The notes beneath the pieces are model-generated. The model was not told the origin of the DNA. It saw nothing but the letters and a program-made list of their open reading frames with translations, and made no database searches. A DNA stretch of 64,000 nt from Thermoanaerobaculia bacterium (lineage in GTDB: Bacteria > Acidobacteriota > Thermoanaerobaculia > Multivoradales > JAIOJS01): assembly GCA_030429235.1 (NCBI GenBank), contig JAUIDB010000010.1, positions 13,334 to 77,333 on the forward strand. The letters run 5' to 3'. Positions 3,935-45,385 of this stretch are shown piece after piece. The translations under genes and the position numbers were made by a program. Position 1 is the stretch's first letter. Each line of letters starts with the position of its first letter.

Positions 3935-3950
3935 TGGCACGTCAGTTGCT
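3935..3950 (+). promoter_or_regulatory. Sigma-54 (-24/-12) promoter candidate upstream of the Kelch-like gene
   Basis: TGGCACGTCAGTTGCT matches the consensus TGGCACG-N4-TTGCW at every specified position. It lies in a 400-nt intergenic region, about 120 nt upstream of the ATG at 4073. Confidence 0.6.
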
Positions 3951-6804: not shown

Positions 6805-7619
6805 CGAGACTCACCCTTCCGAGACAGTTCGAGTTGAATTGATTGGAGTGACTCCCCAGTTCCTGCTAGGAAGCGAGATACCGCCTGCTTTTTTTCTGGC
6901 CGGAGATCTAGGGTTGCCGGACAGAGCCTCTTCTTCGTACAGCTGATACGGGATCGTTCCCACTCGTCTATGGATTGCGCCAACTCGAGCAGTCGAAGCG
7001 CTACGGTTTCTCGCTGTCGTTCGTAGCTATCGATTCTGTGAGACAGGGTGTTCTCGGTCCGTTCGGTTGTCTCCCGGACCGCAGTGAGTTCCTTTTTCGT
7101 CTCATAGAGCTGTTCGAGTGTTTCGTTGGCTTTGGCTTGCAGGTCCACAAGTTCGTCCTCGACGGTTTGTATGTGCGCCCCGACCCCAGCGAGTAGAAGC
7201 TCGAAACTCGTACGGATTTCCGAGCGCACTTCGTCGTCGTAGTTCTGAAGCTGCCCCTCCACTTGACGAAAGACCTTCTCTCGATGATCGTTAAAGGCGC
7301 TGGGAATTTGGTCTACGTACTGCATCACCTGCTCGTTGAGTTCGAGGTGTCTACGCACCAGATCGTCGTGTTCACTCCGAAGTACTGATAGCTCGACTTC
7401 GTGAATCCGGAGTTCCTTCCGGAGGTCGGCCGTCAACTCGTTCGCTCGCTGAAGCTGATCTGAACAGCCCTGGCCTTCGGACCTGCATCTCTTGAGATCC
7501 CTTTCGCAGCAGGCTGCGGTGCCACTGATAAGAAAGACGAGCAGTAGCCGAGTCGGCAACGAGCGGCTCCGGCGGTGGAGGCTCCTTTCAGATCGAACCA
7601 TCATGGATTCTTTGTCCAT
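6801..7619 (-). CDS. Coiled-coil protein, possible lipoprotein, translationally coupled to the ankyrin gene
   Basis: N-terminus LLLVFLISGTAACC (lipobox-like). The rest is heptad-rich and E/L/R/Q-rich. The 4-nt GTGA overlap with the start of 5686..6804 supports co-expression. Confidence 0.6.
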   Translation of the reverse strand: MDKESMMVRSERSLHRRSRSLPTRLLLVFLISGTAACCERDLKRCRSEGQGCSDQLQRANELTADLRKELRIHEVELSVLRSEHDDLVRRHLELNEQVMQYVDQIPSAFNDHREKVFRQVEGQLQNYDDEVRSEIRTSFELLLAGVGAHIQTVEDELVDLQAKANETLEQLYETKKELTAVRETTERTENTLSHRIDSYERQRETVALRLLELAQSIDEWERSRISCTKKRLCPATLDLRPEKKQAVSRFLAGTGESLQSIQLELSRKGESR

Positions 7620-7850
7620 CCGATCTCCTTCTTCCGAGGCCTTCTCGGGCGGCCTTCACAAAACAACTCGTGGGGCCATGGATCTGCAAGGCCCGGGCCA
7701 AGCCCTCCCGGAGGCCTGGGTATGTCTGGACGCGATTTCCGGCGCGACCCCGAGTGCAAGCAGGTGAAGAGACTGGCTGTGGACGTTGCTAAGCTAGTGT
7801 CTACCCGTGTCTCTCGGAAGATGCGCGCTCCTGACACAATAGGGCCAGCA

Positions 7851-25496: not shown

Positions 25497-25766
25497 GAGC
25501 GTGGGTCCCGCGGCACTGGCACGAAAGCCTGCGAGCTCTCGATCGAAGGGTTTGGACGAGGGGTCGTGTCTCGAGAGTGACTCTCGCCGGAGGTCGGAGT
25601 CCACCCCACAACCGGAAGGCGCGAAGGAAGCAGTCGCCATCCGAGGCGGCGGCATGCGACATGCTAGACTGCAGAAGCGTCCTACACAGGCAAGAGCGTC
25701 CGAGTTCAATGGCCATGGTCTACAAAAACGAGCCTTCTTGCTCGGCACACACGAGGTGACGAAACA

Positions 25767-26267
25767 ATGGTGACTTCCCGAGCGAGGCTGCTGGCCTGCA
25801 TCGCCGGCGGCATTCTGATCTTGATGGCTGGTGTCGACCCCGCCCGGGCACAATGCAATACCACCGGGAATCCGAACATGACCACGTTCCCGACCGGCCC
25901 CACCATCGTGATCACCAAGTACCTAACGGCGGCCACGACCTGTACGGGGACCGTGAGCACTGCCCTCGCCTGCTACCCATCGAATGGAGAGGTGGTCACC
26001 GGGTTGACGTTTCTGGTTGCGAGTGCGCTGACGGCAACAGTCAACCCTGTTTGTCAGTGGAACTGTGGCTGTGGCACCGTCACCACGGACACGGGAGACG
26101 GTCTGCCGGTGGAACTGATGGACTTCGAGATCGAAGCTTCGTCCCAAGCGGCTGGCATGCCAGTCGAGGAGACTCCGGCCAGAGCGGCTCCACTCGCTTC
26201 GAGTACCAGAGCCTCGAGCGCCGACTCCAACGCGCCGGTGTATCGACCAGAACCTCAGCCACTCTGA
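25767..26267 (+). CDS. Small secreted Thr/Cys-rich protein containing a PVELMDFEIE motif
   Basis: Signal peptide with cleavage-like site ARA|QC. Seven Cys in the mature part. GAGGTG lies 9 nt upstream of the ATG. No family recognised. Confidence 0.5.
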   Translation: MVTSRARLLACIAGGILILMAGVDPARAQCNTTGNPNMTTFPTGPTIVITKYLTAATTCTGTVSTALACYPSNGEVVTGLTFLVASALTATVNPVCQWNCGCGTVTTDTGDGLPVELMDFEIEASSQAAGMPVEETPARAAPLASSTRASSADSNAPVYRPEPQPL

Positions 26268-26571: not shown

Positions 26572-27060
26572 ATGGGACAGCCATTGCAGTTGCTTGAACA
26601 CGCAATCGTTGAGCTGCGTCTCGTCGTGGTCTGGAGGCGGATTCCCTGGGCCTCTTGGGCCTTGACTCTGGCGACCCTTTTCGCGCTCTGGCCCCTCGTG
26701 GCGGCTCACAGCTCGAATCTCGGCGCCCCACCTAGCGATCGGGTTCGTCAGCTCCCAGACTCCACCATGGAAGCCGCGATCCAGGCCGGTTGTGGCTCGG
26801 CGGCCCCGTTGGAGTTCCGTCAGTCCCCGGGGTCGAAACCCGAGGTCACAGGGCCGCTCCTGCTCGCTGAGGGCCCCGAGCCGGTGCCCCGAGGCGTCAT
26901 CCTACTTCCTTGTCGGCGGGTTCCCCTTGACGGCCGCGGTCGGGGCTTCCATCGAGCCCATGGTGGAGGAGGCTCGTACCTGACCGACTCAGAGGTCTTC
27001 TCGTTGACGATGGTTCTTGAGGAACCGTGGTCGATTACTCAGGGCCAGGAGTCAGAGTAG
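26572..27060 (+). CDS. Hypothetical protein (weak), in frame with the next ORF and separated from it only by a TAG
   Basis: One TM-like segment (WASWALTLATLFALWPLVAA). No RBS seen. It stops at 27058-27060, immediately before GTG 27061 in the same frame. Confidence 0.25.
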   Translation: MGQPLQLLEHAIVELRLVVVWRRIPWASWALTLATLFALWPLVAAHSSNLGAPPSDRVRQLPDSTMEAAIQAGCGSAAPLEFRQSPGSKPEVTGPLLLAEGPEPVPRGVILLPCRRVPLDGRGRGFHRAHGGGGSYLTDSEVFSLTMVLEEPWSITQGQESE

Positions 27061-34625: not shown

Positions 34626-35303
34626 TCAGCTCGGGGTCGGCGCGGAAGCCGGGGGCCACAGGTTGCGTCCCAGCTTGGTCGACAGCCACTCCAGGCCGCC
34701 GCGCCAGCCCGTGAAGCGAATCCCGGTCTCGACGCGGGCGAGCAGTACGCAGCCTTCGTCGGCTTCGGTGGCGGGTCGGTGGCTCGAACCCGCCTCGTAC
34801 CGCACGAAGTCGCCCGCCTCGACCAGGAGCTGGTCGTCGCGATAGCCGCCGGTGAGGACCAGGGTCTCCTCGGAGCCGAGGTGCTGGTGGGTCGGGAAAC
34901 GCCGGTCGGCACCGGCTCGAGCCGCCACCAGGAAGTACTCGTCCTCGCGGGCCAGAATCGCTACCTCCACCCCCCGAGTCAAAGGCGATCGCCAGCGCGG
35001 CGAACCCTGCCAGGGGAGGCTACCCGTCCGCCACTCGCGAGGTAGAGGCAGCCCGCCATCGGTGGTGCCCGGCGAGTCGTCGAGGCTCCTTGCCAGGCGC
35101 TCCCAGATCGTCGGTGGCGGCGCGGCTTCCCGAACTCCTTCGAGCCAATGCTGTCCGGGGGCTTGCAGCGCGTCCAGTTCCGAGCGGCAGGCGGCGCAGA
35201 GATCGAGATGGCAGTCGATCAGAAAGCGGCGCGGCAGGTCGACCTGGCCGGCGGAGTAGTCGATCAGTAGATCCGCAGAGGGGTGGTGGCGGGGGATCCT
35301 CAT
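34626..35303 (-). CDS. chrR: ChrR-type anti-sigma factor (N-terminal zinc-binding domain plus C-terminal cupin)
   Basis: HHPSADLLIDYSAGQVDLPRRFLIDCHLDLCAACRSEL matches the ChrR N-terminal HxxxCxxC pattern. Cupin-like C-terminus. It starts 1 nt after the ECF sigma stop. Confidence 0.8.
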   Translation of the reverse strand: MRIPRHHPSADLLIDYSAGQVDLPRRFLIDCHLDLCAACRSELDALQAPGQHWLEGVREAAPPPTIWERLARSLDDSPGTTDGGLPLPREWRTGSLPWQGSPRWRSPLTRGVEVAILAREDEYFLVAARAGADRRFPTHQHLGSEETLVLTGGYRDDQLLVEAGDFVRYEAGSSHRPATEADEGCVLLARVETGIRFTGWRGGLEWLSTKLGRNLWPPASAPTPS

Positions 35304-35304
35304 C

Positions 35305-35844
35305 CTATCGATTCTCCAGGTGTTGTCTCAGTCGGTTCAGGCCGCTCCGAACCCTCGACTTGAGGGTGCCGAGAGGGAGCTCGAGACGGCGCGCCGTCTC
35401 CTCGTAGGTCAGCCCGCCGAAGTAGGCGAGCTCGAGGGCGCTGCGCTGCCCGTCGTCCAGCTGACCGAGAGCCTGTACCACAGCGAGACGGGTCTCGAGA
35501 GAGAGCCGCAAGGGTGGTTGGATCGGCTCCGATTCCAAGGCGCTGGTGGGACGACGTCCCTGGTAGCGCAGGCGATCGAACCACTTGTTGCGGGCGATGG
35601 TGAAGAGCCAGCCGGCGGCGACTCCGCGCCGGGCATCGAAGGTCGTGGCTCGGTCCCAGACGGCGAGAAAGACGTCCTGGAGCAGGTCGTCGACGTCAGT
35701 CTTCGCTGCACCGAGGCTGCTCAGGTAGGCGGCGATGCGACCGCCGTACCGCTCGTAGAAGGTCGCAAAGGCGTGGCGGTCGCCGCTGGCGACGCGTCGC
35801 AGCAGCTCCTGGTCATCGATCGTCGGTGTGGGCAAGGGAATCAC
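35305..35844 (-). CDS. ECF-type RNA polymerase sigma-70 family factor
   Basis: Region 2 (DVDDLLQDVFLAVWDRATTFD...WLFTIARNKWFDRLR) and region 4 (ALELAYFGGLTYEETARRLELPLGTLKSRVRSGL). GTG start with a GGAGA RBS. Confidence 0.85.
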   Translation of the reverse strand: MIPLPTPTIDDQELLRRVASGDRHAFATFYERYGGRIAAYLSSLGAAKTDVDDLLQDVFLAVWDRATTFDARRGVAAGWLFTIARNKWFDRLRYQGRRPTSALESEPIQPPLRLSLETRLAVVQALGQLDDGQRSALELAYFGGLTYEETARRLELPLGTLKSRVRSGLNRLRQHLENR

Positions 35845-36020
35845 AGTATGGCATCTCCGAGGGCCACAAAGTCGCTGCTTTCGGCAGGCTTGTCGATCCG
35901 TCCTACGTCGGCGGGGTGGATTTGGATGAAGTCATCTATCGCGGGCATCGTGGCGTAGACCTCCATGAAGCCACCGATCCACCGCGTGCGCCGCGCACCA
36001 TCTTCAAGGAGTTCCTGCCG

Positions 36021-37448
36021 ATGCTCTATCGTTTGTTTCGTAGAATGTTTCTCGCTCTGGTCTCGATCTCGCTCCTCGCTGCCGGCGCGTCGGCGAGCAC
36101 CCATCGAGGCCCGACCGTCGTCCCGACCGCGGAGGGTCAGATCGGGGAGACACCCGGGGTGGACGACCGGATCCTGGGGCCCCGCTTCGAGTCGATCCGA
36201 GGCCAGGCCGGCGAGGTCCTGTTGGGGAGCAGCGTGCTCTTCGGAGGGGTGATGCCGCCGCCGCCGGCCTTCGACTTCCTGACGGATCGGCTGCACGGCG
36301 CCAGCAATCCGGTACCGATCACCAGTGCCACGAGCTCCTTCCTGACGGTGCCGATGCAGTCTCCGGCCTCGGATCGGCGGCGCGCGGCCAGTGGGCTCGG
36401 TGACTTCGTGGCCTTCAGTTTCGCCGTCGACGGCTCATTGCCCCAGACGATGACGGTTCGGATCGCCACCTTCGACGAAGACGGGACGACGCTGGCCTCG
36501 GTGCCGGTGGCGGTCGATGTCCCGACGTTCAGCGTTCCGGACCCCTTGTTCACCAAGACCGGCGTAGCGGTCGACGACCAGGGTCGGGCTACCGTCGTCT
36601 TCACCCAATTCGACTCCGGGATTCCTACGGTGCGCGGTCAGCGGGTGAGTGTAGTGACGGGAGCCCCGATCGGTGGGTCGTTCCCGATCGGACCCGCGGC
36701 TCAGGCGAACCCTGACGTCGCTCTGCTCGATCCGGCGGGCGATCGACTGATCGTGGCCTCCAACCGCTTCACCAATCCCCCGGTGCTGGTCGGCAATATC
36801 GTCGACTTCTCCTCGGGCAGCCCCGTGGTCTTGCCGGAGTTCACGATCCCCAATACCCCGGCCAGTTTCGGCAACTTACTCACCGATGTTGCCGCAGACC
36901 CGGCCACCGGTACCTCCACCGTGGTCTGGGATCAGTTGACCGGCGTGCTCGGCAACCCGGCCGACGTGCGCGCCCGGCGCTTCGACGCCATGGGCAACCC
37001 CATCGGTGGCGACTTCCAGGTCAACACGCTCGATGCCAACGCGCAGGGCCAGGCGGCGGTGGCCTACGGACCGAACGGCAACTCGGCCATCATCTGGGCG
37101 GGAGATCCCGCCGCACCGCAGGGTCCCGAGGATCTCGACGTGTTCGGCCAGGCCTACGACGCCGACGGCAATCCGATCGGCGGCGAGGTGCCGGTGAACA
37201 CGTTCACGACCAACACCCAGGACCGGCCGACGGTTCGGTTTCTACCAGAGCCGGACGCGCAGGGTCGGTCCCAGTTCGCCGTCGCCTGGCGCGACACCGG
37301 GGACTCCACGGGGGCAACTCCGCGCGGCACCGGTCAGAGCTACCGCTGCTTCTCGATCGAAGGTCTGGAGGATCCTACGGAGATCTTCGCCGACGGCTTC
37401 GAGTCCGGGGACACGACATCATGGTCCGAGACGCAGCCCGGGTCATAG
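36021..37448 (+). CDS. Secreted repeat protein with C-terminal FADGFESGD tail
   Basis: Start re-set to ATG 36021 (MLYRLFRRMFLALVSISLLAAGASA). Repeated GNPIGG(D/E)xxVNT modules. It ends EIFADGFESGDTTSWSETQPGS. Confidence 0.7.
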   Translation: MLYRLFRRMFLALVSISLLAAGASASTHRGPTVVPTAEGQIGETPGVDDRILGPRFESIRGQAGEVLLGSSVLFGGVMPPPPAFDFLTDRLHGASNPVPITSATSSFLTVPMQSPASDRRRAASGLGDFVAFSFAVDGSLPQTMTVRIATFDEDGTTLASVPVAVDVPTFSVPDPLFTKTGVAVDDQGRATVVFTQFDSGIPTVRGQRVSVVTGAPIGGSFPIGPAAQANPDVALLDPAGDRLIVASNRFTNPPVLVGNIVDFSSGSPVVLPEFTIPNTPASFGNLLTDVAADPATGTSTVVWDQLTGVLGNPADVRARRFDAMGNPIGGDFQVNTLDANAQGQAAVAYGPNGNSAIIWAGDPAAPQGPEDLDVFGQAYDADGNPIGGEVPVNTFTTNTQDRPTVRFLPEPDAQGRSQFAVAWRDTGDSTGATPRGTGQSYRCFSIEGLEDPTEIFADGFESGDTTSWSETQPGS

Positions 37449-37493
37449 CTTCGGAAACCAGAGTCTTACCCGAGAGCAACGGCGATGACCGGT

Positions 37494-38888
37494 CTAGGTC
37501 TGGTCGTCCTGCTCCGGTCGGGCAATGCCGAGACTGTTCATCTTCTGATGGAGATGGGTCCTCTGCAGTTCGAGCAGGCGGGCGGCAGCGGCCACGTTCC
37601 AGCCCGTGCTGGCGAGGGCGCGTCGGATGTGGCGGGCCTCGGCGATCTCCTTGAACCGGCGAAAGGGGAGTACGGGGCCGTCGAAGGGGTCGTCGCCATC
37701 GGCTCCGCTCTCAGAGGTCCGGGGATCGAGCATCTCGACCGGTAGCTGCTCGGGAGTGACGGGGTCGGTGCCAAAGACGACGAGCCGCTCGGTCAGGTTT
37801 TCGAGTTCGCGAACGTTGCCGGGCCACGGGTACTGTTCGAGGATCGGATAGACGGCCTCGGTGGCGGCGAGTTGGCGCACGCGGTGGCGAGTCCAGGCCC
37901 GACGGAGAAAGTGGTCGAAGAGGAGCCGGATGTCTCCGGAGCGCTGGCGCAGCGGAGGGACTTCGATCGGCAGGTGGGCGAGGCGGAAGTACAGGTCCTG
38001 TCGGAAGGACTGGTTCCGGATGCCCTCCTCCAGTTGGGCGTGGGTGGCGGCGAGGACCCGCACGTCGACCTCTCGGTCGCGGGTCTCGCCGATGCGGCGG
38101 ACGCGGCCGTCCTCGAGAACCCTGAGGAGGCGGGACTGTAACCGGTAGTCCATGTCGCCGATCTCGTCGAGGAAGAGGGTCCCGCCGTGAGCCTCTTCGA
38201 AAAGGCCCCGTTTGTCGCTGGCGGCGCCGGTGAACGCTCCCTTGACGTGGCCGAAGAGCTCGTCCTCGACCAGATCCTGCGGGATCGCGGCGCAGTTGAG
38301 TTTGATGAAGGGTTGGCGCGCCCGTGGGCTGCCGCGATGGATGGCGTCGGCCACGAGCTCCTTGCCGGTACCACTCTCGCCGAGGATGAGGACCCGACCC
38401 TCGGTCGGGGCCGCTTTGGCGATCGCCTCGCGGAGGGCCAGCATGGCCGGCGACTCGCCGATCAGTTCCGACTGGCCGCGCAGCTCGGACTCGAGGTCCT
38501 GGACCCGCGTTCTCAGGCTGGAGTGTTCGAGGGTGTTCTCGATCGATCGGCGGAGGCGCTCGGTACTGAACGGCTTCTCGATGAAGTCGTGGACGCCGAG
38601 CTTGAGGGCCTCGACCGTCTCGGCGATCGAGGCCTCCCCGGAAACGATGATCGTCGGCGGGAGACGATCCGACTCGGCCAGGCGTCGGATCAACTCGACG
38701 CCGCTCAGGCCGGGCAAACGCACGTCGACCAGCATCAGGCCCGGAGGGTTGTCGGGTCGGGAGTCGAGCCATTCCAGGGCCGCCTCGGCGGTGTCGGTGG
38801 CCGCGGCCCGGTGTCCCGCCTCTTTGAGCTGGAAGAGCAGGTTGGCGCGAATCCTCGGATCGTCCTCGACGACGAGAACCTCGATCAT
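37494..38888 (-). CDS. NtrC-family sigma-54-dependent response regulator
   Basis: Receiver domain (VVEDD...MLVDVRLPG). AAA+ domain with GESGTGKE, an intact GAFTGA (ELFGHVKGAFTGA) and LFLDEIGDM. C-terminal Fis-type HTH (NVAAAARLLELQRTHLHQKMNSLGI). Confidence 0.9.
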   Translation of the reverse strand: MIEVLVVEDDPRIRANLLFQLKEAGHRAAATDTAEAALEWLDSRPDNPPGLMLVDVRLPGLSGVELIRRLAESDRLPPTIIVSGEASIAETVEALKLGVHDFIEKPFSTERLRRSIENTLEHSSLRTRVQDLESELRGQSELIGESPAMLALREAIAKAAPTEGRVLILGESGTGKELVADAIHRGSPRARQPFIKLNCAAIPQDLVEDELFGHVKGAFTGAASDKRGLFEEAHGGTLFLDEIGDMDYRLQSRLLRVLEDGRVRRIGETRDREVDVRVLAATHAQLEEGIRNQSFRQDLYFRLAHLPIEVPPLRQRSGDIRLLFDHFLRRAWTRHRVRQLAATEAVYPILEQYPWPGNVRELENLTERLVVFGTDPVTPEQLPVEMLDPRTSESGADGDDPFDGPVLPFRRFKEIAEARHIRRALASTGWNVAAAARLLELQRTHLHQKMNSLGIARPEQDDQT

Positions 38889-40114
38889 TCGGTACTCCGT
38901 GCGGACGGCGCCTCGGGTTCGGGCGGCGGCAGGGTGAGCTGGAAGGTGGCGCCGCCGGTCGAGCTCGAAACCAGTCGAAGGTCGCCACCGTGGTCGAGGA
39001 GGATCTTCTTGGAGATCGCCAGACCGAGTCCCATCCCCTCGCCGACGTTCCGGGTCGTCGTGTAGGGCTGGAAGAGGCTGTCACTCACCTGGGCGGCGAT
39101 GCCGGGGCCGTCATCGGCCACGTCGACCTGCACCTCGTGGTCGAGGCAGCGAACCTCCAGGGTCACCGACACCGAGCCCGGGGCCGCGGCGGCGGAACTG
39201 TTATCCCAGAGGTTCACCAGCACTTGACGCATCATGTCGCGGTCGATGTTGACGAAAGCGGGTCCGCTGGTGACGCACTGGAGGGAGAGGTTGTCCCAGG
39301 CATCCTGGTAGATCTCGGCGAGTTCGGCCAGGAGACTCGACAGGTCGACGCGCTGTAGCTTCGGCCGCGGCAGCCGGGCGAAGGAGCTGAAGCGGTGGGT
39401 GAACTCGGTGAGTCGATCCAGTTCCTGCCGGGCCCCGTCGAGGAACTCGTCGATCTCGGCGGCAGTGGCGCGAGGGTTCTTCTGCAGTGTGTTGCCCAGG
39501 CGAGCCAATTCGAGGCGCAAACCGGTGATGGGAGAGCGCATCTCGTGGGCGTGGCGTCGCGCTGCTTCCTGCCAGGCGGACAGGTTTTCGAGCATGGCCA
39601 GTCGTTGGCGGTCACCGGCCATGCGGCGCGAGGTCTCCTCGATCATGGCTGCGATCCTACCGAGGACGCCCCGCCCGCTCTCGCCCGTGTCGAGGACCGG
39701 TCGGCCTTCGGCGAGCCGACCGAGCGACTCTCGGAGCCGCTCGAGGCGGCGCTCGCGGTTCGTCTGGCGCCAAACCAGGCCGCCGGCTACCACCAGGAGG
39801 CAGAGGGCGAAGAGGGTGAGCCCGAGTGCCTCGGATCGCGCCACCAGGTCGGCTCGACTGCGCTCCAAGACCTGGAGTCGGTGCAGCGTCGATTCGATCC
39901 GATCGAATCGTTCGCGGTACTCGGCCGCTCGCTCCGGATCCAGCTCCGCCAGCCGCTTCTGGTCGTCGAGCGAGCCGGACAGTCGATCGAGTACCTCGGG
40001 GTGGGCGCCGAAGGCGAAGGAAGCCTGCGAGAGCTGTCGCTGTAGGACCTGAAAGAGGAGGGCCGCGAGCAGGATGGCTCCGAGCGTGGCGACGATCGGG
40101 GTGCGAAGCTTCAT
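38885..40114 (-). CDS. Two-TM sensor histidine kinase (HisKA + HATPase_c)
   Basis: Start re-set to ATG 40114 (MKLRTPIVATLGAILLAALLF). H-box HEMRSPITGL, N-box VLVNLWDNS, G-boxes DDGPGI and GMGLGLAISK. ATGA overlaps at both ends link it to its neighbours. Confidence 0.85.
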   Translation of the reverse strand: MKLRTPIVATLGAILLAALLFQVLQRQLSQASFAFGAHPEVLDRLSGSLDDQKRLAELDPERAAEYRERFDRIESTLHRLQVLERSRADLVARSEALGLTLFALCLLVVAGGLVWRQTNRERRLERLRESLGRLAEGRPVLDTGESGRGVLGRIAAMIEETSRRMAGDRQRLAMLENLSAWQEAARRHAHEMRSPITGLRLELARLGNTLQKNPRATAAEIDEFLDGARQELDRLTEFTHRFSSFARLPRPKLQRVDLSSLLAELAEIYQDAWDNLSLQCVTSGPAFVNIDRDMMRQVLVNLWDNSSAAAAPGSVSVTLEVRCLDHEVQVDVADDGPGIAAQVSDSLFQPYTTTRNVGEGMGLGLAISKKILLDHGGDLRLVSSSTGGATFQLTLPPPEPEAPSARSTE

Positions 40115-40800
40115 GGGCGCGGTGCCTTTTCGAGGCGCAGTGTCCATTCCAGATGCACCATGGGTCGACGGCGGATCGAGGTGCTGAGGAGTCCGTCGAA
40201 GACGCGGTCGAGAGAGCTCTCGCTGCGCTCGAGACGATCCTTGGACTCCGATTCGGCCGTACGACTGGAACGTACCGACTCGGCAAACCAACGCTGGGTC
40301 TCGCGCTGTTCGGCCGCCGAGAAGGGAACCACCTGGAGGCGCACCCGGAGGGCGGGAGGCGGGTCGTGGGCAAGAGCAGCCGCGCACAGTGGGACCTCGA
40401 GGTCGGACCACCAGCCCCGGAGGTCGGCGGGGTCGGCCAGGGTTCGGCGGGTGGTGCTGTCCGGAGTTCGGAAGGTGGTGACCTGAAACTGCTCCTCCCA
40501 GAGCTCGTACCGAATCTGGATCGTGGTCCGGGCCAGGGAGGCCTTGCGGTTCAGGGCCAACTCGAACCTGAAGTGCGTGGTCAGACCGGTCTGGAGGTGT
40601 CGCTCGATCTCGGGGTCATCCAGGATTTCGGGCAGCTGCGAGAGGAGCACACACTCCTCATTGGACCGAGAGAGCCGCGGCGGGTCGGCGGCCAAGGAGG
40701 AGCCCAAACAGAGGATCAAGCAGAGACCCCAGAATCCCCGAGTCGCGGGGCGACGAGGCAGGACCGACGACGGGGGCACCCGGTAGAGCAAAGGTCGCAC
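40111..40800 (-). CDS. Periplasmic protein co-transcribed with the kinase (possibly DUF4390-like)
   Basis: Signal peptide FWGLCLILCLGSSLA. GTG start 3 nt after the upstream stop, and its stop overlaps the kinase ATG. The DUF4390 assignment rests on my recollection of that family's position upstream of NtrY-like kinases and is unverified. Confidence 0.6.
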   Translation of the reverse strand: MRPLLYRVPPSSVLPRRPATRGFWGLCLILCLGSSLAADPPRLSRSNEECVLLSQLPEILDDPEIERHLQTGLTTHFRFELALNRKASLARTTIQIRYELWEEQFQVTTFRTPDSTTRRTLADPADLRGWWSDLEVPLCAAALAHDPPPALRVRLQVVPFSAAEQRETQRWFAESVRSSRTAESESKDRLERSESSLDRVFDGLLSTSIRRRPMVHLEWTLRLEKAPRP

Positions 40801-40803
40801 CGG

Positions 40804-42336
40804 CTACTGCTTCCCTCGATCCAGGTAGGCCAACCGCAAGGAGACCACGCCCCATGGGCTGCGGAACGACAGACCGCTGCTGACCTCGAACCCCCGTTCG
40901 AAGTCGGGCGCAGCGGGAGAACCGGCGAACGAACTGCCGTCGAACAGGGTCAGGGCCTGGGTCCAACGCAGTTCCCGGCTCCCGTGCCGACGGCTGGAGT
41001 GTAGGAGTAGGCTGTGTTGGAGCGAAGCCTGCAGTCGCCACACCGTCGAACGACTCGATCCGAGGCCCAGTCCCGAAGGCGCGACGTCGTCCACCTTGCG
41101 TTCTCCGGCCAGGATCCGACCGGAGACACCCAGCGACTGCCGGGCACCGAACGAGCGGTGGAGTTCCCCTCCCAGTGAGAGGCCGAGCAGGGACGAGTCC
41201 ATCTCCGCCAGCGGGGTCGTGGAGTCGAGGAAGGAGCGAATCGGGCCGAGCCGCGCGGTCAGGTGCTGCCACTCGATTCCCGCCTGCAAGCGGGCCCCGT
41301 CGGTGGGGAAGAGGGGGTCGTCGACCGAGTCGAATCGCCACGCCAACTCCAGCCGCTGGTCCTCACGGTCCTCGAAGCCCAGGGTGCTCTCGACCACCGG
41401 AGCGACGGCGGACCGACGGATCCCGGAATCGCTCCGCCGCGCTTCACCGCGGAGGAGCAGGGAGTGGTTGCGCCGCAGGGGGACTCCAAGGTCGAGCCGG
41501 AACCGGGTCGTGCGTTCGCCGGCGCTCCAGGTCGAGGCCGTCGGGTCGAGGACGTCGTGGAGCTGAGTACGGCACTCACTGCCGGCCGCCGGGACCGCGT
41601 CGTGGCCGATGGCCGACTCGAGAGAATCCACGATCTGCTGCCGCACGTCCTCGCAGTGCACGGTCGAGACGCTGAGGGTGGCCAGGCCCCCGCGGCCGAA
41701 AGGGTCGTAGCGGCTGACCCCCGCGGTGAGTTCGCCATCCCCACTGACGACGCCGAACGCGACGAGGCTCGGGCCGAGAGCGAAACGCCGACCGGCGAAC
41801 AGGGTCGTTCCGTCGACCCGATCGGTGGTGGCCAGCCCGTCGACCGAGACGTCGTGGGCCCACCAGGTGGCCTCGGAATACAGGCCGAAGACCCACCTTC
41901 GGACCTCTTCGACCCGAATCTGCAGGTGGTACAGACCGCGGGAGGAACCCTTCTCGAGCGAGAACTCGGCGTCCAGGACCAGGGGGAGCCGGACGATGCG
42001 GGCCATGGCCTGGCCGAGCTGCGACTCGCTGTAGGCGTGGCCCTCCTCCAACTGTGCCGTGTTGAGGAGGCTGGTCGTCGACAGCAGGGAGATGCCGTCG
42101 ACGGCGATCGTCTCGATCGCGAACCGAGGGCCCTCCGGGGGCGGCGGGGGCGAGGCGGCGTGCGTGGCCGGCGGGGGAGGCTGGGCGCGTCCCGTGGAGG
42201 GGCCCACCGCGGATCCCAGGAGGAGAGCGAGGCCGATCAGGACGACCGGCCGCCTCCAGCTTCCGCGGAGCCGGTTGCGGTGTGGCGGAGCGGGCCGCGG
42301 GATTCCCTGCACAAGGCCTGGTCGTCGGGTTCTCAT
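40804..42336 (-). CDS. POTRA-domain outer-membrane beta-barrel protein (Omp85/TpsB superfamily)
   Basis: Signal peptide. POTRA-like FAIETIAVDGISLLSTTSLLNTAQLEEGHAYSESQLGQAMARIVRLPLVLDAEFSLEKGS..LYHLQIRVEE. This is followed by ~400 aa of alternating beta-strand-like sequence. Confidence 0.7.
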   Translation of the reverse strand: MRTRRPGLVQGIPRPAPPHRNRLRGSWRRPVVLIGLALLLGSAVGPSTGRAQPPPPATHAASPPPPPEGPRFAIETIAVDGISLLSTTSLLNTAQLEEGHAYSESQLGQAMARIVRLPLVLDAEFSLEKGSSRGLYHLQIRVEEVRRWVFGLYSEATWWAHDVSVDGLATTDRVDGTTLFAGRRFALGPSLVAFGVVSGDGELTAGVSRYDPFGRGGLATLSVSTVHCEDVRQQIVDSLESAIGHDAVPAAGSECRTQLHDVLDPTASTWSAGERTTRFRLDLGVPLRRNHSLLLRGEARRSDSGIRRSAVAPVVESTLGFEDREDQRLELAWRFDSVDDPLFPTDGARLQAGIEWQHLTARLGPIRSFLDSTTPLAEMDSSLLGLSLGGELHRSFGARQSLGVSGRILAGERKVDDVAPSGLGLGSSRSTVWRLQASLQHSLLLHSSRRHGSRELRWTQALTLFDGSSFAGSPAAPDFERGFEVSSGLSFRSPWGVVSLRLAYLDRGKQ

Positions 42337-42412
42337 GGAGTCCGGACAGAGCCTCTCACAGGTTGCGCGGTGGCGCCAGGACGGCCCGCTCTCGCCACAG
42401 GGTCCATCCCGC

Positions 42413-43060
42413 CTAGAAGCGGTACCCGAGTCCGAGACTCAGGGAGTCGAAGTCGATGTCGACGGTTCCGTAGTCGACCAGCAGGTCGAGGCGGGGCGTC
42501 AGGTCGACGCGAGCGCCGGCACCGAGGAGTAGCTCGCTTCCAGTCAGCCGACCGAGGTACCCGAAGGTCGGTTGCACCGCCGAGATACGCTCTTCGTAAT
42601 AGCCCAGACCAACCCGTCCGAAGAGCGTAGTGCGGCCGAAATGGGTCTGCGGCACGAAGGCAAAGGTGAACAGTTCGAGGTCGGCCTCGACTTTGGCCAG
42701 CAGTTCGATGCAGAGAACCAGGGGGCCGGGAAAGCAGGCGGAACCCCAGCCCTCGAGATCATCGGCCCTTTGGTAGCCAACCTCGATGGCGAGGTTGCGG
42801 TGCAGTTCGAACCCGAAGACGACGGCTGGGGAGACCGCCTCGTTGTCGAAGTCCCAAGCGTGTAGGCCTTCGTAGGTGCGGTCGAAGGCCGCCAGTCCGC
42901 CCTTGAAGTCGACGTAGAAACGTTCCTCGGCCGCGCTTGGCGCCGCCAGGGCGAAGAGCACGCAGAGCCAGGCGAGGCCGGGAAGGAGCCTTCGAGACGT
43001 CGCAGGGGACCGGCGGGTCGTGGGGGCTGGGAGGTGGTTGCGGAGGAGGGAATGGTGCAT
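42413..43060 (-). CDS. Small outer-membrane beta-barrel protein (OmpA-like/OmpW-like porin family)
   Basis: Start re-set to ATG 43060 with an AGGAGA RBS. Signal peptide LAWLCVLFALAAPSAA. Alternating hydrophobic strands. C-terminal OMP signature LSLGLGYRF. Confidence 0.7.
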   Translation of the reverse strand: MHHSLLRNHLPAPTTRRSPATSRRLLPGLAWLCVLFALAAPSAAEERFYVDFKGGLAAFDRTYEGLHAWDFDNEAVSPAVVFGFELHRNLAIEVGYQRADDLEGWGSACFPGPLVLCIELLAKVEADLELFTFAFVPQTHFGRTTLFGRVGLGYYEERISAVQPTFGYLGRLTGSELLLGAGARVDLTPRLDLLVDYGTVDIDFDSLSLGLGYRF

Positions 43061-43103
43061 GGTGTCTCCTGGTCGGTGGAAAGGGTTCGATGCCTCTGAC
43101 GAC

Positions 43104-43119
43104 AGCAATGACCTTGCCA
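43104..43119 (-). promoter_or_regulatory. Sigma-54 promoter candidate (minus strand) for 42413..43060 and possibly the downstream operon
   Basis: The minus strand reads TGGCAAGGTCATTGCT, one mismatch to TGGCAC-N5-TTGCW with correct GG/GC spacing. It lies ~45 nt upstream of ATG 43060. Confidence 0.5.
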
Positions 43120-43309
43120 ACCTCGGGGGCGGAGGGCTCGGGTGGAGCGATCCTGGCCGATCCGAAGGTTGAGAAGAATCGGGGCCGGTCGGCGCCTCGT
43201 GTCCGAGAGGGGCGAGTCGTTCGTAGCCACCGACGGTGGTGTCTGGGAAACCAGACGGTTCCGCACCATGGAGCCCCGGTCACTGCCCGTTGGAAACGGA
43301 GGAATCGTC

Positions 43310-43325
43310 TGGCCTCGGGATTGCA
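43310..43325 (+). promoter_or_regulatory. Sigma-54 promoter candidate (plus strand) for 43353..43904
   Basis: TGGCCTCGGGATTGCA has the invariant GG and GC at correct spacing and a perfect TTGCA, with two mismatches in the -24 hexamer. It lies 28 nt upstream of ATG 43353. Confidence 0.45.
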
Positions 43326-43352
43326 CCGGCTTCCGAACCAGGAGGATCTCTG

Positions 43353-43904
43353 ATGACCAAACTTCTCTGTTCGACCCTTCTCCTACTCGTCGCTGGACCG
43401 TTGGCGGCTCTGCCGGATCTCTGGATCGGAGCTGGGGTGGGTAGTTCTCCCACGGCCGGTACCCAGGGCGCCAGCTTCCCCTCGGTCACCGAGACCGACG
43501 GGCCGAGCTGGCGGCTGAGCGCCGGCGCCGAACTGGGACGTTTTTTCGGTCTGGAACTTGCCTACCGGGACTTGGCGCGCCAGCTCTGTTGCGAGGGGTT
43601 CGCGGACCTCGGGTTCGATCTCTCGGTTCGAGGGCTCTCGGCGGCGCTCTCGAGTCGACTCCCCCTGAACCGCTTCTCGCTCTTCGCCAAGATCGGTGTC
43701 TTCACCTGGGAGGAGGAGGGCAACTTGCTGACGATCGCCGGGCCCCGCGACTTCGCCGCCGACGGCACCGACCTGTTGATCGGCGCGGGGATCGACTACG
43801 AACTCTGGCGCGACCTTGGAGTCCGAGCGGATTGGGAACGTCTCGAGTTCAACGATCTTTCGAGCGACCTCTTCTGGATCTCGGTGCAGTGGCGCTTCGA
43901 GTGA
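43353..43904 (+). CDS. Small outer-membrane beta-barrel protein
   Basis: Start re-set to ATG 43353, preceded by GGAGGA. Signal peptide LLCSTLLLLVAGPLAA. Beta-strand periodicity. It ends FWISVQWRFE. Confidence 0.65.
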   Translation: MTKLLCSTLLLLVAGPLAALPDLWIGAGVGSSPTAGTQGASFPSVTETDGPSWRLSAGAELGRFFGLELAYRDLARQLCCEGFADLGFDLSVRGLSAALSSRLPLNRFSLFAKIGVFTWEEEGNLLTIAGPRDFAADGTDLLIGAGIDYELWRDLGVRADWERLEFNDLSSDLFWISVQWRFE

Positions 43905-43999
43905 GATGCACCGGGGCCTGCCATCCGACGGGCTCCTGAGTCTCGGGGACCGGCGAAGCGGGTCGTCAGGCAGCGCAGGCGTCGGTGCGACCACTCGAC

Positions 44000-45385
44000 T
44001 CAGCCGAGGAGGCCGTCCGGATTCCAGGTGCGGCGCACCCGGTGGAGTCGCTCGAGGTCGACTCCTCCGCTGGCGCCGCGCCGCTCGCTTTCGTCTGAGT
44101 CCTCGGTCAGAAAGTTGACGTAGCCACCACGCTGCGATCGGGCGTGGACCTGGGTCCAGAAGTCCCGAACCCAACGGAGGTTGGCCTCGTCTTCCGACGG
44201 GTCGGTCCAGGCGGTGGCGATCACGACGATGTACCGAGCATCGCGGTGTCCGGCGGCCGAGTGCTGGGCCGAAACCCGGGCGACCGCGCCCCCCAGCTCG
44301 AAGACCTTGATGTTGGCGGCGGGGGAGGGCAGCTGCTGGAGCGCGCGGAGCAGAATCGCCTGCAGCTCGTCATCGAGTTCGCCGATGTACTCGGACTTCC
44401 AGTAGTTGCGCCGCCCGTCGGGCTCGCCGGCGTCGAACATCGCCTGGAACTGTCCGAACCGGCGGGGTTCGAAGAGGTCGGCGGCCAGGCCGGGCCCGAT
44501 GCGGAGCGGCGCGAGGTCGGTGGCAGCCTGCTCGAGATCGTCGCCACTATGGCAGCCGATGGTGGCAGCGCAGGGCTGGCCGTGGAGGTCGGCTTCCAGG
44601 AACGGGGCGGCCGGAGCCGCGCCGAGCTTCAATAGGCAGGTCAGTTCCTCGGGCCGGTTGCGCTCCCGCGAGCGGAACCGTCGAAATGCCGCTTCCGCGT
44701 CGCGGTGGAAGACCACTCCGGCCAGCACCTCGTGGTCGAGGCGGTGCGACCGGAAGTGGAAGGTGGTGACGACGCCTAGACCGCCGCCGCCGCCCCGGAG
44801 CGCCCAGAGGAGCTCGGGGTGGCTGTCGGCGTCGACGCGCACGGCTTCACCGGTGGCGGTGACCAGGTCGACCGCCTCGAGGTGGTCGCAGGTCAAGCCC
44901 CAGCGGCGGGAGAGCCAGCCGAAACCACCCCCGAGGGTGAGGCCGGCGATCCCGGTGGCCGAGACGATGCCGCTGGGGACGACGCGGCCGTGCGGCAGCG
45001 TGCCGGCGTCGAGGTCTCCCAAGGTGGCCCCCGGTTCCACGACGACGCGCTCACCTTCGATCCGCACCCCGCGGCGGTGGCCCTGGTAGACCACCACTCC
45101 TCCGTCAGCGAGGGCCCGTCCACCGATATTGTGTCCGCCACCCCGGACGCTGAGCGGCAAAGCATGGGTCCGGGCGAAGCGAACACACTCCTGCACGTCG
45201 GAGACGTCGTCGCAGCGCACGATGAGTTGCGGCTGACGCTCGATCATGGCGTTCCAGAGGGTGCATGCCGTGGGGTAGCCCGGATCCTCTGGGGTCAGGG
45301 CCTCGCCGCCCAGACGCGAACGCAGGGCCTCCAGGCCCTCCAGGGGGTGTGACGTCAAGGGGCTCGTAGGGGGTGTTTCGCGCAT
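44000..45385 (-). CDS. FAD-linked oxidase (FAD_binding_4 / berberine-bridge-enzyme-like)
   Basis: PLSVRGGGHNIGGRAL, GATLGDLD, TGIAGLTLGGGFGWLSRRWG, and a C-terminal BBE-like YVNFL...RLHRVRRTWNPDGLL. Start re-set to ATG 45385 with a GAGGAG RBS. Confidence 0.85.
   Translation of the reverse strand: MRETPPTSPLTSHPLEGLEALRSRLGGEALTPEDPGYPTACTLWNAMIERQPQLIVRCDDVSDVQECVRFARTHALPLSVRGGGHNIGGRALADGGVVVYQGHRRGVRIEGERVVVEPGATLGDLDAGTLPHGRVVPSGIVSATGIAGLTLGGGFGWLSRRWGLTCDHLEAVDLVTATGEAVRVDADSHPELLWALRGGGGGLGVVTTFHFRSHRLDHEVLAGVVFHRDAEAAFRRFRSRERNRPEELTCLLKLGAAPAAPFLEADLHGQPCAATIGCHSGDDLEQAATDLAPLRIGPGLAADLFEPRRFGQFQAMFDAGEPDGRRNYWKSEYIGELDDELQAILLRALQQLPSPAANIKVFELGGAVARVSAQHSAAGHRDARYIVVIATAWTDPSEDEANLRWVRDFWTQVHARSQRGGYVNFLTEDSDESERRGASGGVDLERLHRVRRTWNPDGLLG

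Follow-up and report, generated by a model that had tools for sequence, protein, structure and literature searches.

A probable sigma-54-dependent envelope signalling cassette joining an Omp85-like barrel gene to a two-component system in Acidobacteriota

We analyzed a 64-kb stretch of DNA (the window) from an uncultured acidobacterium and found a four-gene cassette, coding for an Omp85-like outer-membrane (OM) barrel, a periplasmic protein, a sensor kinase and a sigma-54 regulator, which is conserved in Acidobacteriota and so far undescribed. It is probably a positively autoregulated, sigma-54-dependent envelope signalling cassette. Sequence and comparison show what the genes are, that their order and the promoter are conserved, and that a conserved, phased enhancer co-varies with the regulator. 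The initial annotation had taken the locus for a self-contained sigma-54 envelope module, possibly autoregulated, with OM proteins as outputs, and the conserved core, promoter, palindrome and helix covariation described below speak for that reading. It had also stated that an Omp85/TpsB-type barrel joined to a two-component system matches no described system; our literature searches likewise found neither such a coupling nor a paper on the cassette.

Six genes are present at the locus (Table 1). Their previously proposed identities were confirmed by Pfam and predicted structures, the periplasmic protein being without a Pfam family. The sequences and coordinates, the 292-nt region between the small barrel genes, the 76-nt gap, the 3-nt gap between the Omp85-like and periplasmic genes and the two ATGA overlaps (periplasmic/kinase and kinase/regulator) also held on re-examination.

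Table 1. Features of the locus, numbered from the first letter of the window
Feature	Position	Strand	Remarks
NtrC-type response regulator / sigma-54 enhancer-binding protein	37494..38888	-	Receiver, AAA+ with GAFTGA, Fis-type HTH
Sensor histidine kinase	38885..40114	-	Pfam HisKA + HATPase_c; hydropathy; ATGA overlap at each end
Exported periplasmic protein, unannotated family	40111..40800	-	Signal peptide, beta-sandwich, two long C-terminal helices
Divergent Omp85-superfamily OM protein	40804..42336	-	Signal peptide, one POTRA, barrel of ~16 strands
bbA/Omp85-like spacer	42337..42412	-	76 nt; promoter or terminator not recognisable
bbA, small 8-strand-type OM barrel gene	42413..43060	-	Pfam OMP_b-brl 8e-11, OmpA_membrane; opens the operon in this lineage
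Predicted sigma-54 (-24/-12) promoter of the five-gene operon	43104..43119	-	TGGCAAGGTCATTGCT; predicted start near 43093
Palindrome CCACCG-A-CGGTGG	43227..43239	.	CCACCGACGGTGG; adjoins the conserved element
Candidate upstream activating sequence GTCTG-N6-CAGAC	43241..43256	.	GTCTGGGAAACCAGAC; presumed site of the operon's own regulator
Candidate sigma-54 promoter of bbB	43310..43325	+	TGGCCTCGGGATTGCA; predicted start near 43336
bbB, second small OM barrel gene, divergent from the operon	43353..43904	+	Pfam OMP_b-brl 5e-13, OmpA_membrane 8e-6

The strongest evidence came from comparison with relatives. The core order, Omp85-like barrel, periplasmic protein, kinase and sigma-54 regulator, was kept together with the strand in about 40 loci, found in Thermoanaerobaculia, in Holophagales and elsewhere in Acidobacteriota, and the flanks of the core were unrelated between loci. 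In most loci compared a small barrel gene was absent near the core. One locus, L003, carried a bbA ortholog (43% identity) in the equivalent position, with TGGCAGCGGGGTTGCA ahead of the gene. There, as in the window, the sigma-54 site lay only before bbA, and the best site before the Omp85-like gene scored 3.7 bits. In this lineage, bbA separates the Omp85-like gene from the ancestral promoter. It has AGGAGA 7 nt ahead of its ATG. In the 76-nt spacer that follows it, no sigma-54 site reached 7 bits, and the fold stability of the spacer was no better than that of shuffles (z = 0.62); no terminator-like or sigma-70-like sites were found within positions 37000–44300.

The window was scanned for sigma-54 promoters with an approximate weight matrix, with frequencies after Barrios et al. 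1999. The minus-strand site scored 16.9 bits (rank 2 in the 64 kb) and the plus-strand site 12.0 bits (rank 7). The paired -24/-12 observation is genuine and well over chance level: TGGC-N7-TTGCW occurred five times in the window versus 0.49 expected (~10-fold; none of 100 shuffles reached five), with two of the five copies inside the 292-nt spacer and four intergenic and correctly oriented. The two promoters had been called facing, but their orientation is actually back-to-back (divergent). Among relatives, 31 of the 39 testable loci carried a YGGCAC-N5-TTGCY element directly upstream of the first cassette gene, and a recognisable -24/-12 element was absent in the other 8. We infer sigma-54 itself, because no rpoN gene was seen in either the window or the other loci retrieved.

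The promoter of bbB deserves separate consideration. It is possible that only the operon promoter is real, that the plus-strand match is a chance GG-N10-GC and that bbB lies outside the regulon behind another type of promoter. In random sequence of this composition, a window contains ~3.8 sites scoring 11 bits or more and 0.75 scoring 13 bits or more, and about two sites as good as the plus-strand one are expected by chance. In addition, this promoter was seen in this lineage only among the relatives compared; bbB, which is distantly paralogous to bbA (25% identity over 105 residues, E 4e-5), was absent from L003 and every other locus compared, and neither promoter nor enhancer was found with its distant relatives (30–34% identity). 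However, an equally good site in the correct orientation within ~100 nt of a start codon has p ~0.001–0.002. The site keeps TGGC and TTGCA intact and ends 27 nt before the bbB ATG, with AGGAGG in between and a predicted leader of 17 nt. It lies 69 nt from the conserved palindrome, 0.4–2.6 bp off the helical phase of the family, and the interval mentioned above offers no sigma-70-like promoter. We regard a chance match as rather unlikely. One of the loci compared for the bbB promoter, L049, is a 99% identical strain.

The two palindromes between the promoters had been suggested to be enhancer-binding-protein sites. Of the two, only the second proved to be a conserved upstream element. The first is not conserved generally: a similar CACCGTGGCGG came after that element in just L008, L010 and L017, and CACCGCGGCGG in L024. 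The first palindrome may be an auxiliary site. The second is the sole exact GTMTG-N6-CAKAC match in the window. Upstream regions of orthologous cassettes (~5.9 kb) contained 14 exact and 6 one-mismatch copies, whereas the remaining ~650 kb had 8 exact ones, and the motif was ~200-fold enriched 91–163 nt upstream of the -24 element. Enhancer-promoter spacings clustered at about 103, 115, 127, 138, 149 and 161 nt, i.e., with a period of ~11.5 bp, which was equalled by 37 of 5000 random sets.

The enhancer also co-varied with the recognition helix of the regulator's Fis-type HTH, which reads QRTHLHQK in the window. The half-site was GTATG in 17/17 loci with a QRTYLHQK helix and a GTATG-type upstream activating sequence call (14 exact, two with one mismatch and one unmatched to a regulator), and GTCT[GC] in all four loci with QRTHLHQK-type helices, and these H-type regulators fell into three separate lineages in a neighbour-joining tree. 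Two loci, L012 and L032, have weak enhancer calls and may break the correlation. Because the loci are related and cannot count as independent samples, the significance of both the phasing and the covariation is overstated. The palindrome at 43241–43256 is presumably where the operon's own regulator binds, common to both promoters.

Could all motif matches nevertheless be coincidental, with an ordinary housekeeping promoter reading the operon? GG-N10-GC is frequent in DNA of 65% G+C, and TGGCAC-N5-TTGCW with up to two mismatches was not enriched window-wide (18 observed versus 16 expected). However, dozens of loci whose proteins share only ~30–40% identity agree in the sequence, position and phase of promoter and enhancer, the enhancer co-varies with the regulator, and a GAFTGA enhancer-binding protein is among the products of the operon. 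We disfavor this explanation and consider it extremely improbable.

The regulator matched Response_reg (1e-24), Sigma54_activat (1e-68), AAA_lid_14 and HTH_8 in Pfam, and the GAFTGA motif, previously described as intact, was indeed found. It scored under every NCBIfam equivalog cut-off (NtrC 390/559, NtrX 347/600 and ZraR 309/760 bits). The kinase, of 409 residues, has two transmembrane helices (residues 6–24 and 96–114) and a periplasmic loop of ~70 residues by hydropathy; its best NCBIfam match was AtoS-like (114 bits, far under the cut-off). Conserved motifs of the periplasmic family are TGLTT, IRYELWDE, PFSxxEQRETQRWF and ATSIRRR, and no Pfam model covers the family. DUF4390, which had been guessed for this protein, was its only recurrent weak Pfam match, with E = 0.054 and 13.4 bits against a cut-off of 27; thus, there is a remote resemblance at best, but not a family match.

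PlrP is the periplasmic third component of PlrSR, plrP overlaps plrS by 4 bp, and the periplasmic gene always occurs with the kinase gene (PMC13001219). The PlrP-PlrS-PlrR system of Bordetella and other beta- and gamma-proteobacteria, an NtrYX-family system with a DUF4390 third component, resembles the cassette in that a gene for an exported protein of ~200 residues lies directly 5' of the kinase gene with a 4-bp overlap, followed by an NtrC-family regulator. The cassette might be a distant member of the NtrYX/PlrPSR family with a true DUF4390 component; the weak DUF4390 matches also speak for this, and NtrX is among the regulator's top NCBIfam matches. However, NtrC and AtoC score higher; DUF4390 stayed under the Pfam cut-off in 129/129 family members tested; the kinase lacks the PDC and PAS domains of NtrY/PlrS, and NtrY was absent among its best 25 NCBIfam matches listed. 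Moreover, rsmB is absent upstream, where the Omp85-like gene precedes the periplasmic gene instead, GAFTGA is intact in the regulator, which has a conserved sigma-54 promoter as its target, the phylum is different and DUF4390 genes have been reported in Proteobacteria only (PMC13001219). True family membership thus appears improbable.

The Omp85-like protein scored 25.8 bits against Pfam Omp85, just over the cut-off of 24, and an NCBIfam search detected a BamA POTRA-like stretch. Its predicted structure (pLDDT 81.5, pTM 0.77) shares the ~16-strand barrel and N-terminal POTRA domain of the Omp85 superfamily (BamA, TamA, TpsB/FhaC). As to whether it is TpsB- or BamA/TamA-like, the best Foldseek matches were BamA and TamA (E 4e-10), and no ShlB, POTRA_2 or other TpsB signature domain was found by Pfam. 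Compared with BamA, the cassette barrel has a single POTRA, ~12% identity and an equivalog score of 26/297 bits. It further differs from the superfamily in a long loop with two invariant cysteines and in sharing an operon with two-component genes, an arrangement for which our literature searches gave no precedent. By inspection, it has no conserved L6 VRGF/Y motif of the kind that active Omp85 insertases typically carry.

These properties bear on whether the barrel and the periplasmic protein are a regulated output rather than a sensor. They could be a pair dedicated to assembly or export, e.g., one that inserts the co-regulated small barrels, or a two-partner-like translocator and its cargo or plug. 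In that case, sensing would fall to the 70-residue periplasmic loop of the kinase itself, and the transcription logic would be unchanged. The insertases as best structural matches, the co-regulation of small barrels in the window and L003, and a tandem duplicate of the barrel in L019 favor such an output. In Sulfidibacter corallicola (L043), the enhancer and promoter still precede two Omp85-like genes and the periplasmic gene, and no kinase or regulator gene is adjacent; this arrangement is equally compatible with outputs and with sensors. On the other hand, the periplasmic and kinase genes overlap by 4 bp like plrP/plrS, the four genes remain together in ~35 loci, and DUF4390 is the commonest weak match of the periplasmic family. 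The missing TpsB domains and L6 motif, and the scarcity of small barrel genes near the core, also argue against an output. We consider an output role a real possibility, though short of probable.

Another system with similar logic is ZraPSR of E. coli and Salmonella, in which ZraR, responding to envelope stress, drives divergent sigma-54 promoters, one for zraP and one for zraSR (PMC4987338). As in the circuit proposed here, a kinase and a sigma-54 regulator activate their own operon and, from a second sigma-54 promoter placed back-to-back with the first, a divergent gene for an envelope protein. Both systems include a periplasmic accessory protein, and ZraR and ZraS are among the NCBIfam matches of the cassette. 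However, the cassette scores far under the ZraS and ZraR equivalog cut-offs and has no ZraP/CpxP-type protein; instead, a beta-sandwich of an unannotated family is encoded inside an operon that includes an Omp85-family barrel, the divergent gene codes for an OM barrel and the lineage is Acidobacteriota. The cassette resembles ZraPSR and PlrP-PlrS-PlrR in regulatory logic but appears to be a member of neither family.

In the autoregulated cassette that we favor, the kinase would phosphorylate the response regulator, which would bind the GTCTG-N6-CAGAC palindrome and, via DNA looping, activate sigma-54 RNA polymerase at the operon promoter 137 nt away. A single message would then carry bbA and the genes for the Omp85-like barrel, periplasmic protein, kinase and regulator, and the same enhancer would serve the divergent bbB promoter in this lineage. 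By analogy with PlrP, ZraP and CpxP and their kinases, the periplasmic protein may modulate the kinase from the periplasmic side, and the single-POTRA barrel may couple this protein, and through it the activity of the kinase, to the condition of the outer membrane. Such a circuit would yield more of the cassette itself together with small OM barrels.

The four packed minus-strand genes and the two small outer-membrane barrel genes (here bbA for the first and bbB for the second) described in the initial annotation lie exactly where it had placed them in the window, whose G+C content is 65%. All spacings given there were recovered in the sequence: a gap of 3 nt, two ATGA overlaps, a 76-nt spacer and, between bbA and bbB, a divergent region of 292 nt. 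Pfam agreed with the identities proposed for the regulator, the kinase, the Omp85-like barrel and both small barrels. The regulator has the receiver, the AAA+ domain and the C-terminal HTH of an enhancer-binding protein, and its GAFTGA motif is intact (residues 217-222). The kinase (409 residues) carries two transmembrane helices (6-24 and 96-114) around a periplasmic loop of ~70 residues and has no PAS domain. Both bbA and bbB have hydrophobic N-termini and match the family profile over the whole protein, as do OmpA/OmpX-like small barrels with a signal peptide. No terminator-like or sigma-70-like sites were detected across 37000-44300. For the 76-nt spacer, a hairpin acting as terminator or attenuator was ruled out, as the fold was no better than that of shuffled sequence. 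Genes for an ECF sigma factor (35305-35844, minus strand) and a ChrR-type cupin anti-sigma factor (34626-35303, minus strand) are located two genes downstream of the cassette; a convergent ORF of 540 aa with no Pfam family (35826-37448) separates this pair from the cassette, and the adjacency is not kept in other loci.

Genes of the cassette and sigma-54-related sites in the window
Feature	Position	Strand	Matches and scores
NtrC-type regulator	37494-38888	-	Pfam Response_reg, Sigma54_activat (1e-68), AAA_lid_14, HTH_8
Sensor kinase	38885-40114	-	Pfam HisKA and HATPase_c
Periplasmic protein	40111-40800	-	no Pfam or NCBIfam match
Omp85-like barrel	40804-42336	-	Pfam Omp85, 25.8 bits (cut-off 24)
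bbA, small barrel	42413-43060	-	OMP_b-brl (PF13505), 8e-11, profile coverage 3-175 of 175
bbB, small barrel	43353-43904	+	OMP_b-brl (PF13505), 5e-13, profile coverage 2-175 of 175
Minus promoter	43104-43119	-	1 mismatch; 16.9 bits; rank 2 of 64 kb
Plus promoter (candidate)	43310-43325	+	2 mismatches; 12.0 bits; rank 7 of 64 kb
Enhancer GTCTGGGAAACCAGAC	43241-43256		only exact copy of the enhancer pattern in 64 kb
Sigma-54 site TGGCACGTCAGTTGCT	3935-3950	+	perfect consensus; 18.6 bits; best in window
Sigma-54-like site TGGCCCGGGCCTTGCA	7685-7700	-	15.3 bits
Sigma-54-like site	25650-25665	+	11.7 bits; just before small ORF 25767-26267 (no Pfam family)
Sigma-54-like site	26573-26588	+	14.2 bits; just before small ORF 26572-27060 (no Pfam family)

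A scan of one genome per species yielded 41 loci, all of which belong to Acidobacteriota (Thermoanaerobaculia, Holophagales, Sulfidibacter corallicola and two loosely labelled MAGs). When these were compared with the six window proteins by tblastn, the Omp85-like, periplasmic, kinase and regulator genes occurred in the same order and on the same strand in nearly every sufficiently long locus, with identities of 25-47% for the Omp85-like and periplasmic proteins and 34-69% for the kinase and regulator. The genes flanking this core are unrelated and differ from locus to locus. The four genes therefore form a self-contained cassette, as had been proposed from the window sequence. Two Thermoanaerobaculia loci lack the regulator gene after the kinase gene. 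In one of them (L007, 12027-14488) an AAA_21 (AbiEii-like) ATPase gene and a Pfam-less gene are found instead, and the other (L015) has ORFs of similar length at the equivalent position; the replacement looks like an inserted two-gene element.

The operon promoter is also conserved. In the 700 nt before the POTRA-equivalent position, YGGCAC-N5-TTGCY was present in 29 of 39 loci, directly preceding the Omp85-like gene at 120-330 nt upstream. A search anchored on the enhancer described below added two loci (L013 and L027), so that the counterpart of the minus promoter is found in 31 of the 39 orthologous loci. bbA occurs only in the window's lineage and, at the same position, in one further locus, L003, whose sole sigma-54 site (TGGCAGCGGGGTTGCA) precedes bbA as in the window. 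A second sigma-54 promoter before the Omp85-like gene was looked for and rejected: no site of at least 7 bits is present there in the window, and the best in L003 has 3.7 bits. Judged from these sequences, the simplest history is that bbA would have been inserted downstream of the ancestral promoter, separating it from the Omp85-like gene and making a five-gene operon in the window's lineage. In L003, the stretch from the sigma-54 promoter to the small barrel gene also holds an upstream ORF of 29 codons (7612-7701), served by a good ribosome-binding site and ending in a stop codon that overlaps the barrel ATG (caATGa); the window instead shows an N-terminal extension in frame. This ORF could be a leader peptide or could have arisen by chance. 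bbB was found only in the window's lineage. A metagenome scan for its relatives returned three loci with 30-34% identity, which are too distant, and none of them had the promoter or the enhancer. In a near-identical strain (L049), none of 7 intergenic differences fell in the motifs (P ~0.19).

We compared the promoter matches with chance expectation. Allowing up to two mismatches, TGGCAC-N5-TTGCW showed no enrichment across the window (18 copies against 16 expected). The core TGGC-N7-TTGCW was enriched (5 found, 0.49 expected, a count reached by none of 100 shuffles); two of the five copies lie in the 292-nt divergent region, and two more, those at 3935 and 7685, are intergenic and aimed at a downstream gene. 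This enrichment and placement point to wide use of sigma-54 promoters in the genome, and the sites at 25650 and 26573, together with others, likewise suggest heavy use. Sites were scored with an approximate weight matrix modelled on the compilation of Barrios et al. (1999), and the absolute scores are only indicative. With this matrix, Markov-random sequence gave, per window, ~3.8 sites scoring 11 bits or more and 0.75 scoring 13 bits or more. GG and GC are exactly 10 nt apart in both promoters of the divergent region. The minus promoter is strong by itself. The plus promoter, a candidate in a single lineage, is credible mainly through its location: the chance of such a site less than ~100 nt from a start codon and in the correct orientation is roughly one or two in a thousand, and the predicted start gives bbB a 17-nt leader containing AGGAGG. 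Six-frame translation of the window and of the fetched loci revealed no RpoN-box motif.

The best site in the window, TGGCACGTCAGTTGCT, is intergenic and lies 122 nt upstream of an ORF of 439 aa with no Pfam family (4073-5392). No GTMTG-N6-CAKAC enhancer was detected near it, and therefore another activator presumably acts there. The TGGCCCGGGCCTTGCA site is located ~66 nt upstream of an ORF of 272 aa without a Pfam family (6801-7619), which is followed by an ankyrin-repeat protein gene (5686-6804), and it is divergent from a gene for a 1000-aa Ser/Thr protein kinase with TPR repeats (7575-10577).

Inspection of the upstream regions revealed a common palindrome, GT[A/C]TG-N6-CA[T/G]AC. The initial annotation had pointed to two adjacent palindromes in the divergent region as possible regulator sites; the second of these is the conserved element, whereas the first (43227-43239) is no general feature, as only four closely related loci have a similar sequence after the enhancer. 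In the 656 kb of related loci, 22 further loci carry the exact pattern, each of them once and almost always just upstream of the operon promoter. The ~5.9 kb of promoter-proximal sequence holds 14 exact copies and 6 with one mismatch, against 8 exact copies in the ~650 kb elsewhere. Distances from the enhancer to the -24 element range from 91 to 163 nt and fall into classes of ~91, 103, 115, 127, 138, 149 and 161 nt. Their best period is ~11.5 bp (37 of 5000 random sets were equally periodic), as expected if the activator must occupy one face of the helix. The loci are kin, and all these enhancer statistics are thus upper bounds on significance. Upstream activating sequences of enhancer-binding proteins are usually found ~80-200 bp from the promoter; in the window the enhancer is 137 nt from the minus promoter and 69 nt from the plus promoter, both within about 1-2.6 bp of the common phase.

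The HTH of the regulator is highly conserved (WN[VF]xAAARLLxxQRT[Y/H]LHQK), and its variable Y/H position in the recognition helix covaries with the enhancer. All 17 loci with Y and a GTATG-type enhancer call had GTATG...CATAC (14 exact, 2 with one mismatch and 1 unmatched to a regulator). The H-type loci, namely the window, L003, L037 and L025, had GTCT[G/C] in at least one half-site in all four cases, and in a neighbour-joining tree the H-type regulators formed three separate lineages interleaved with the Y-type. L012 and L032, whose enhancer calls are weaker, are possible exceptions. This covariation is the best available evidence that the palindrome is probably recognised by the operon's own regulator. 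The cassette has a defined promoter and a defined enhancer sequence, and Y or H of the recognition helix is the predicted specificity-determining residue.

A structure model of the Omp85-like barrel was built from nine homologs (pLDDT 81.5, pTM 0.77). It has one beta-alpha-alpha-beta-beta POTRA domain and a predicted barrel of ~16 strands, and the closest solved structures by Foldseek were BamA and TamA (E 4e-10, ~12% identity). A 16-strand barrel after one or more POTRA domains is the Omp85 pattern. By its modeled fold the protein belongs to the Omp85 superfamily, yet it is neither BamA nor TpsB. It reaches only 26/297 bits with the BamA model TIGR03303 and has one POTRA domain, whereas BamA has five. 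Unlike the TpsB proteins ShlB and FhaC, it has no ShlB or POTRA_2 match, and a TpsB (two-partner-secretion) reading was rejected on this domain content. By inspection, the conserved loop-6 VRGF/Y motif is absent from the barrel; its sole RGF lies near the C-terminus and is not kept in the family consensus. Two cysteines (~228 and ~255 of 510 aa; C185 and C212 in the homolog alignment) are invariant in 9/9 homologs. The long, partly disordered, helix-containing loop that they flank joins strands 5 and 6 of the barrel, and their position suggests that it is disulfide-stapled.

The periplasmic protein represents a family without a name. A first search with it returned seven relatives only, and a profile search of 1.84 billion representative proteins gave 434 clusters; no member returned with source annotation carried a name or a Pfam domain, and the family profile had no sequence match in the PDB. 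DUF4390 (PF14334) matched the window protein at E 0.054 (13.4 bits, cut-off 27). It was also the commonest weak match in the family (6 of 129 members, best E 0.0014), and none of the 129 passed the cut-off. A search with the 129-sequence profile at E <= 10 returned only members of the family itself, all unnamed, and no DUF4390 proteins. With more than 400 sequence clusters lacking annotation, this is a periplasmic family deserving a name.

Two known systems resemble the cassette. Like ZraPSR, it combines a two-component operon under autoregulation with sigma-54 promoters in divergent orientation, and its output is an envelope protein. The ZraPSR-like layout, with a promoter on each side of the enhancer, is a likeness of architecture only. 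Membership in ZraPSR was rejected for each of ZraP, ZraS and ZraR: the regulator reached 309 bits with ZraR (cut-off 760), the kinase 90 bits with ZraS (cut-off 479), and the periplasmic protein has no Pfam family. With PlrPSR/NtrYX the cassette shares the three-component idea and a periplasmic gene that overlaps the kinase gene by 4 bp. ZraP modulates its kinase ZraS (PMC4987338), and PlrP, whose gene overlaps the kinase gene by 4 bp, modulates the kinase PlrS (PMC13001219). Unlike PlrPSR/NtrYX, the cassette lacks rsmB, and its kinase lacks the NtrY architecture (multi-span N-terminus, periplasmic PDC, HAMP and PAS). No NtrY model was among the best 25 NCBIfam matches listed for the kinase, and the regulator reached 347 bits with NtrX (cut-off 600). 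An NtrY-type kinase with an NtrX equivalog was therefore rejected on kinase architecture and the sub-cut-off NtrX score. No such cassette turned up in full-text literature searches, of incomplete coverage, that combined Omp85 or POTRA with sigma-54, kinases or enhancer-binding proteins, or Acidobacteria with both sigma-54 and outer-membrane proteins. Classical in its regulatory principle, the cassette is new in its composition, its periplasmic family and its phylum-wide conservation.

Together, the conserved cassette, promoter, phased enhancer and covariation support the initial interpretation as a sigma-54 envelope module. The operon's own enhancer-binding protein is the only one encoded in the neighbourhood, which makes the arrangement one of probable positive autoregulation. 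The kinase would phosphorylate the regulator, which would oligomerise on the enhancer and remodel the sigma-54 holoenzyme at both promoters. As far as sequence can tell, two outer-membrane barrel genes would be under enhancer control in the window's lineage, bbA in the operon and bbB on the candidate divergent promoter. By analogy only, the periplasmic protein might modulate the kinase and the Omp85-like barrel might tie the periplasmic protein to the outer membrane. A tentative and rather doubtful proposal is that the single-POTRA barrel holds or releases the periplasmic beta-sandwich protein, which sets the kinase/phosphatase balance, in a three-tier relay (outer membrane, periplasm, inner membrane) reporting the state of the outer membrane to sigma-54 RNA polymerase. 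Equally compatible with the gene order is that the barrel and the periplasmic protein are an effector made by the system. The locus of S. corallicola M133 (NZ_CP071793; L043, 6379-10543) speaks for such an effector: two tandem Omp85-like genes and a periplasmic gene lie behind the enhancer GTCTGAATAATCATAC and, 142 nt downstream of it, the promoter TGGCAGTCATCTTGCC, with no adjacent kinase or regulator. This is the only cultured carrier found and would be a useful experimental system in which the barrel/periplasmic pair can be tested as outputs.

Acidobacteriota, abundant in soils and sediments, are hard to grow, and to our knowledge almost nothing is known of the means by which they monitor the state of their envelope. 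Even with the barrel as no more than an output, the cassette would be a clean new sigma-54 regulon controlling outer-membrane composition, which fits the reported proposal that sigma-54 governs the bacterial exterior. If the relay is true, it would provide the first Omp85-type protein with a sensory role rather than one in assembly or secretion, and the founding example of a phylum-wide acidobacterial envelope-stress pathway. The cassette is a conserved regulatory unit with the first candidate Omp85-family protein wired to signal transduction, and it may extend the idea of a periplasmic third component (PlrP, NtrZ, ZraP) beyond Proteobacteria.
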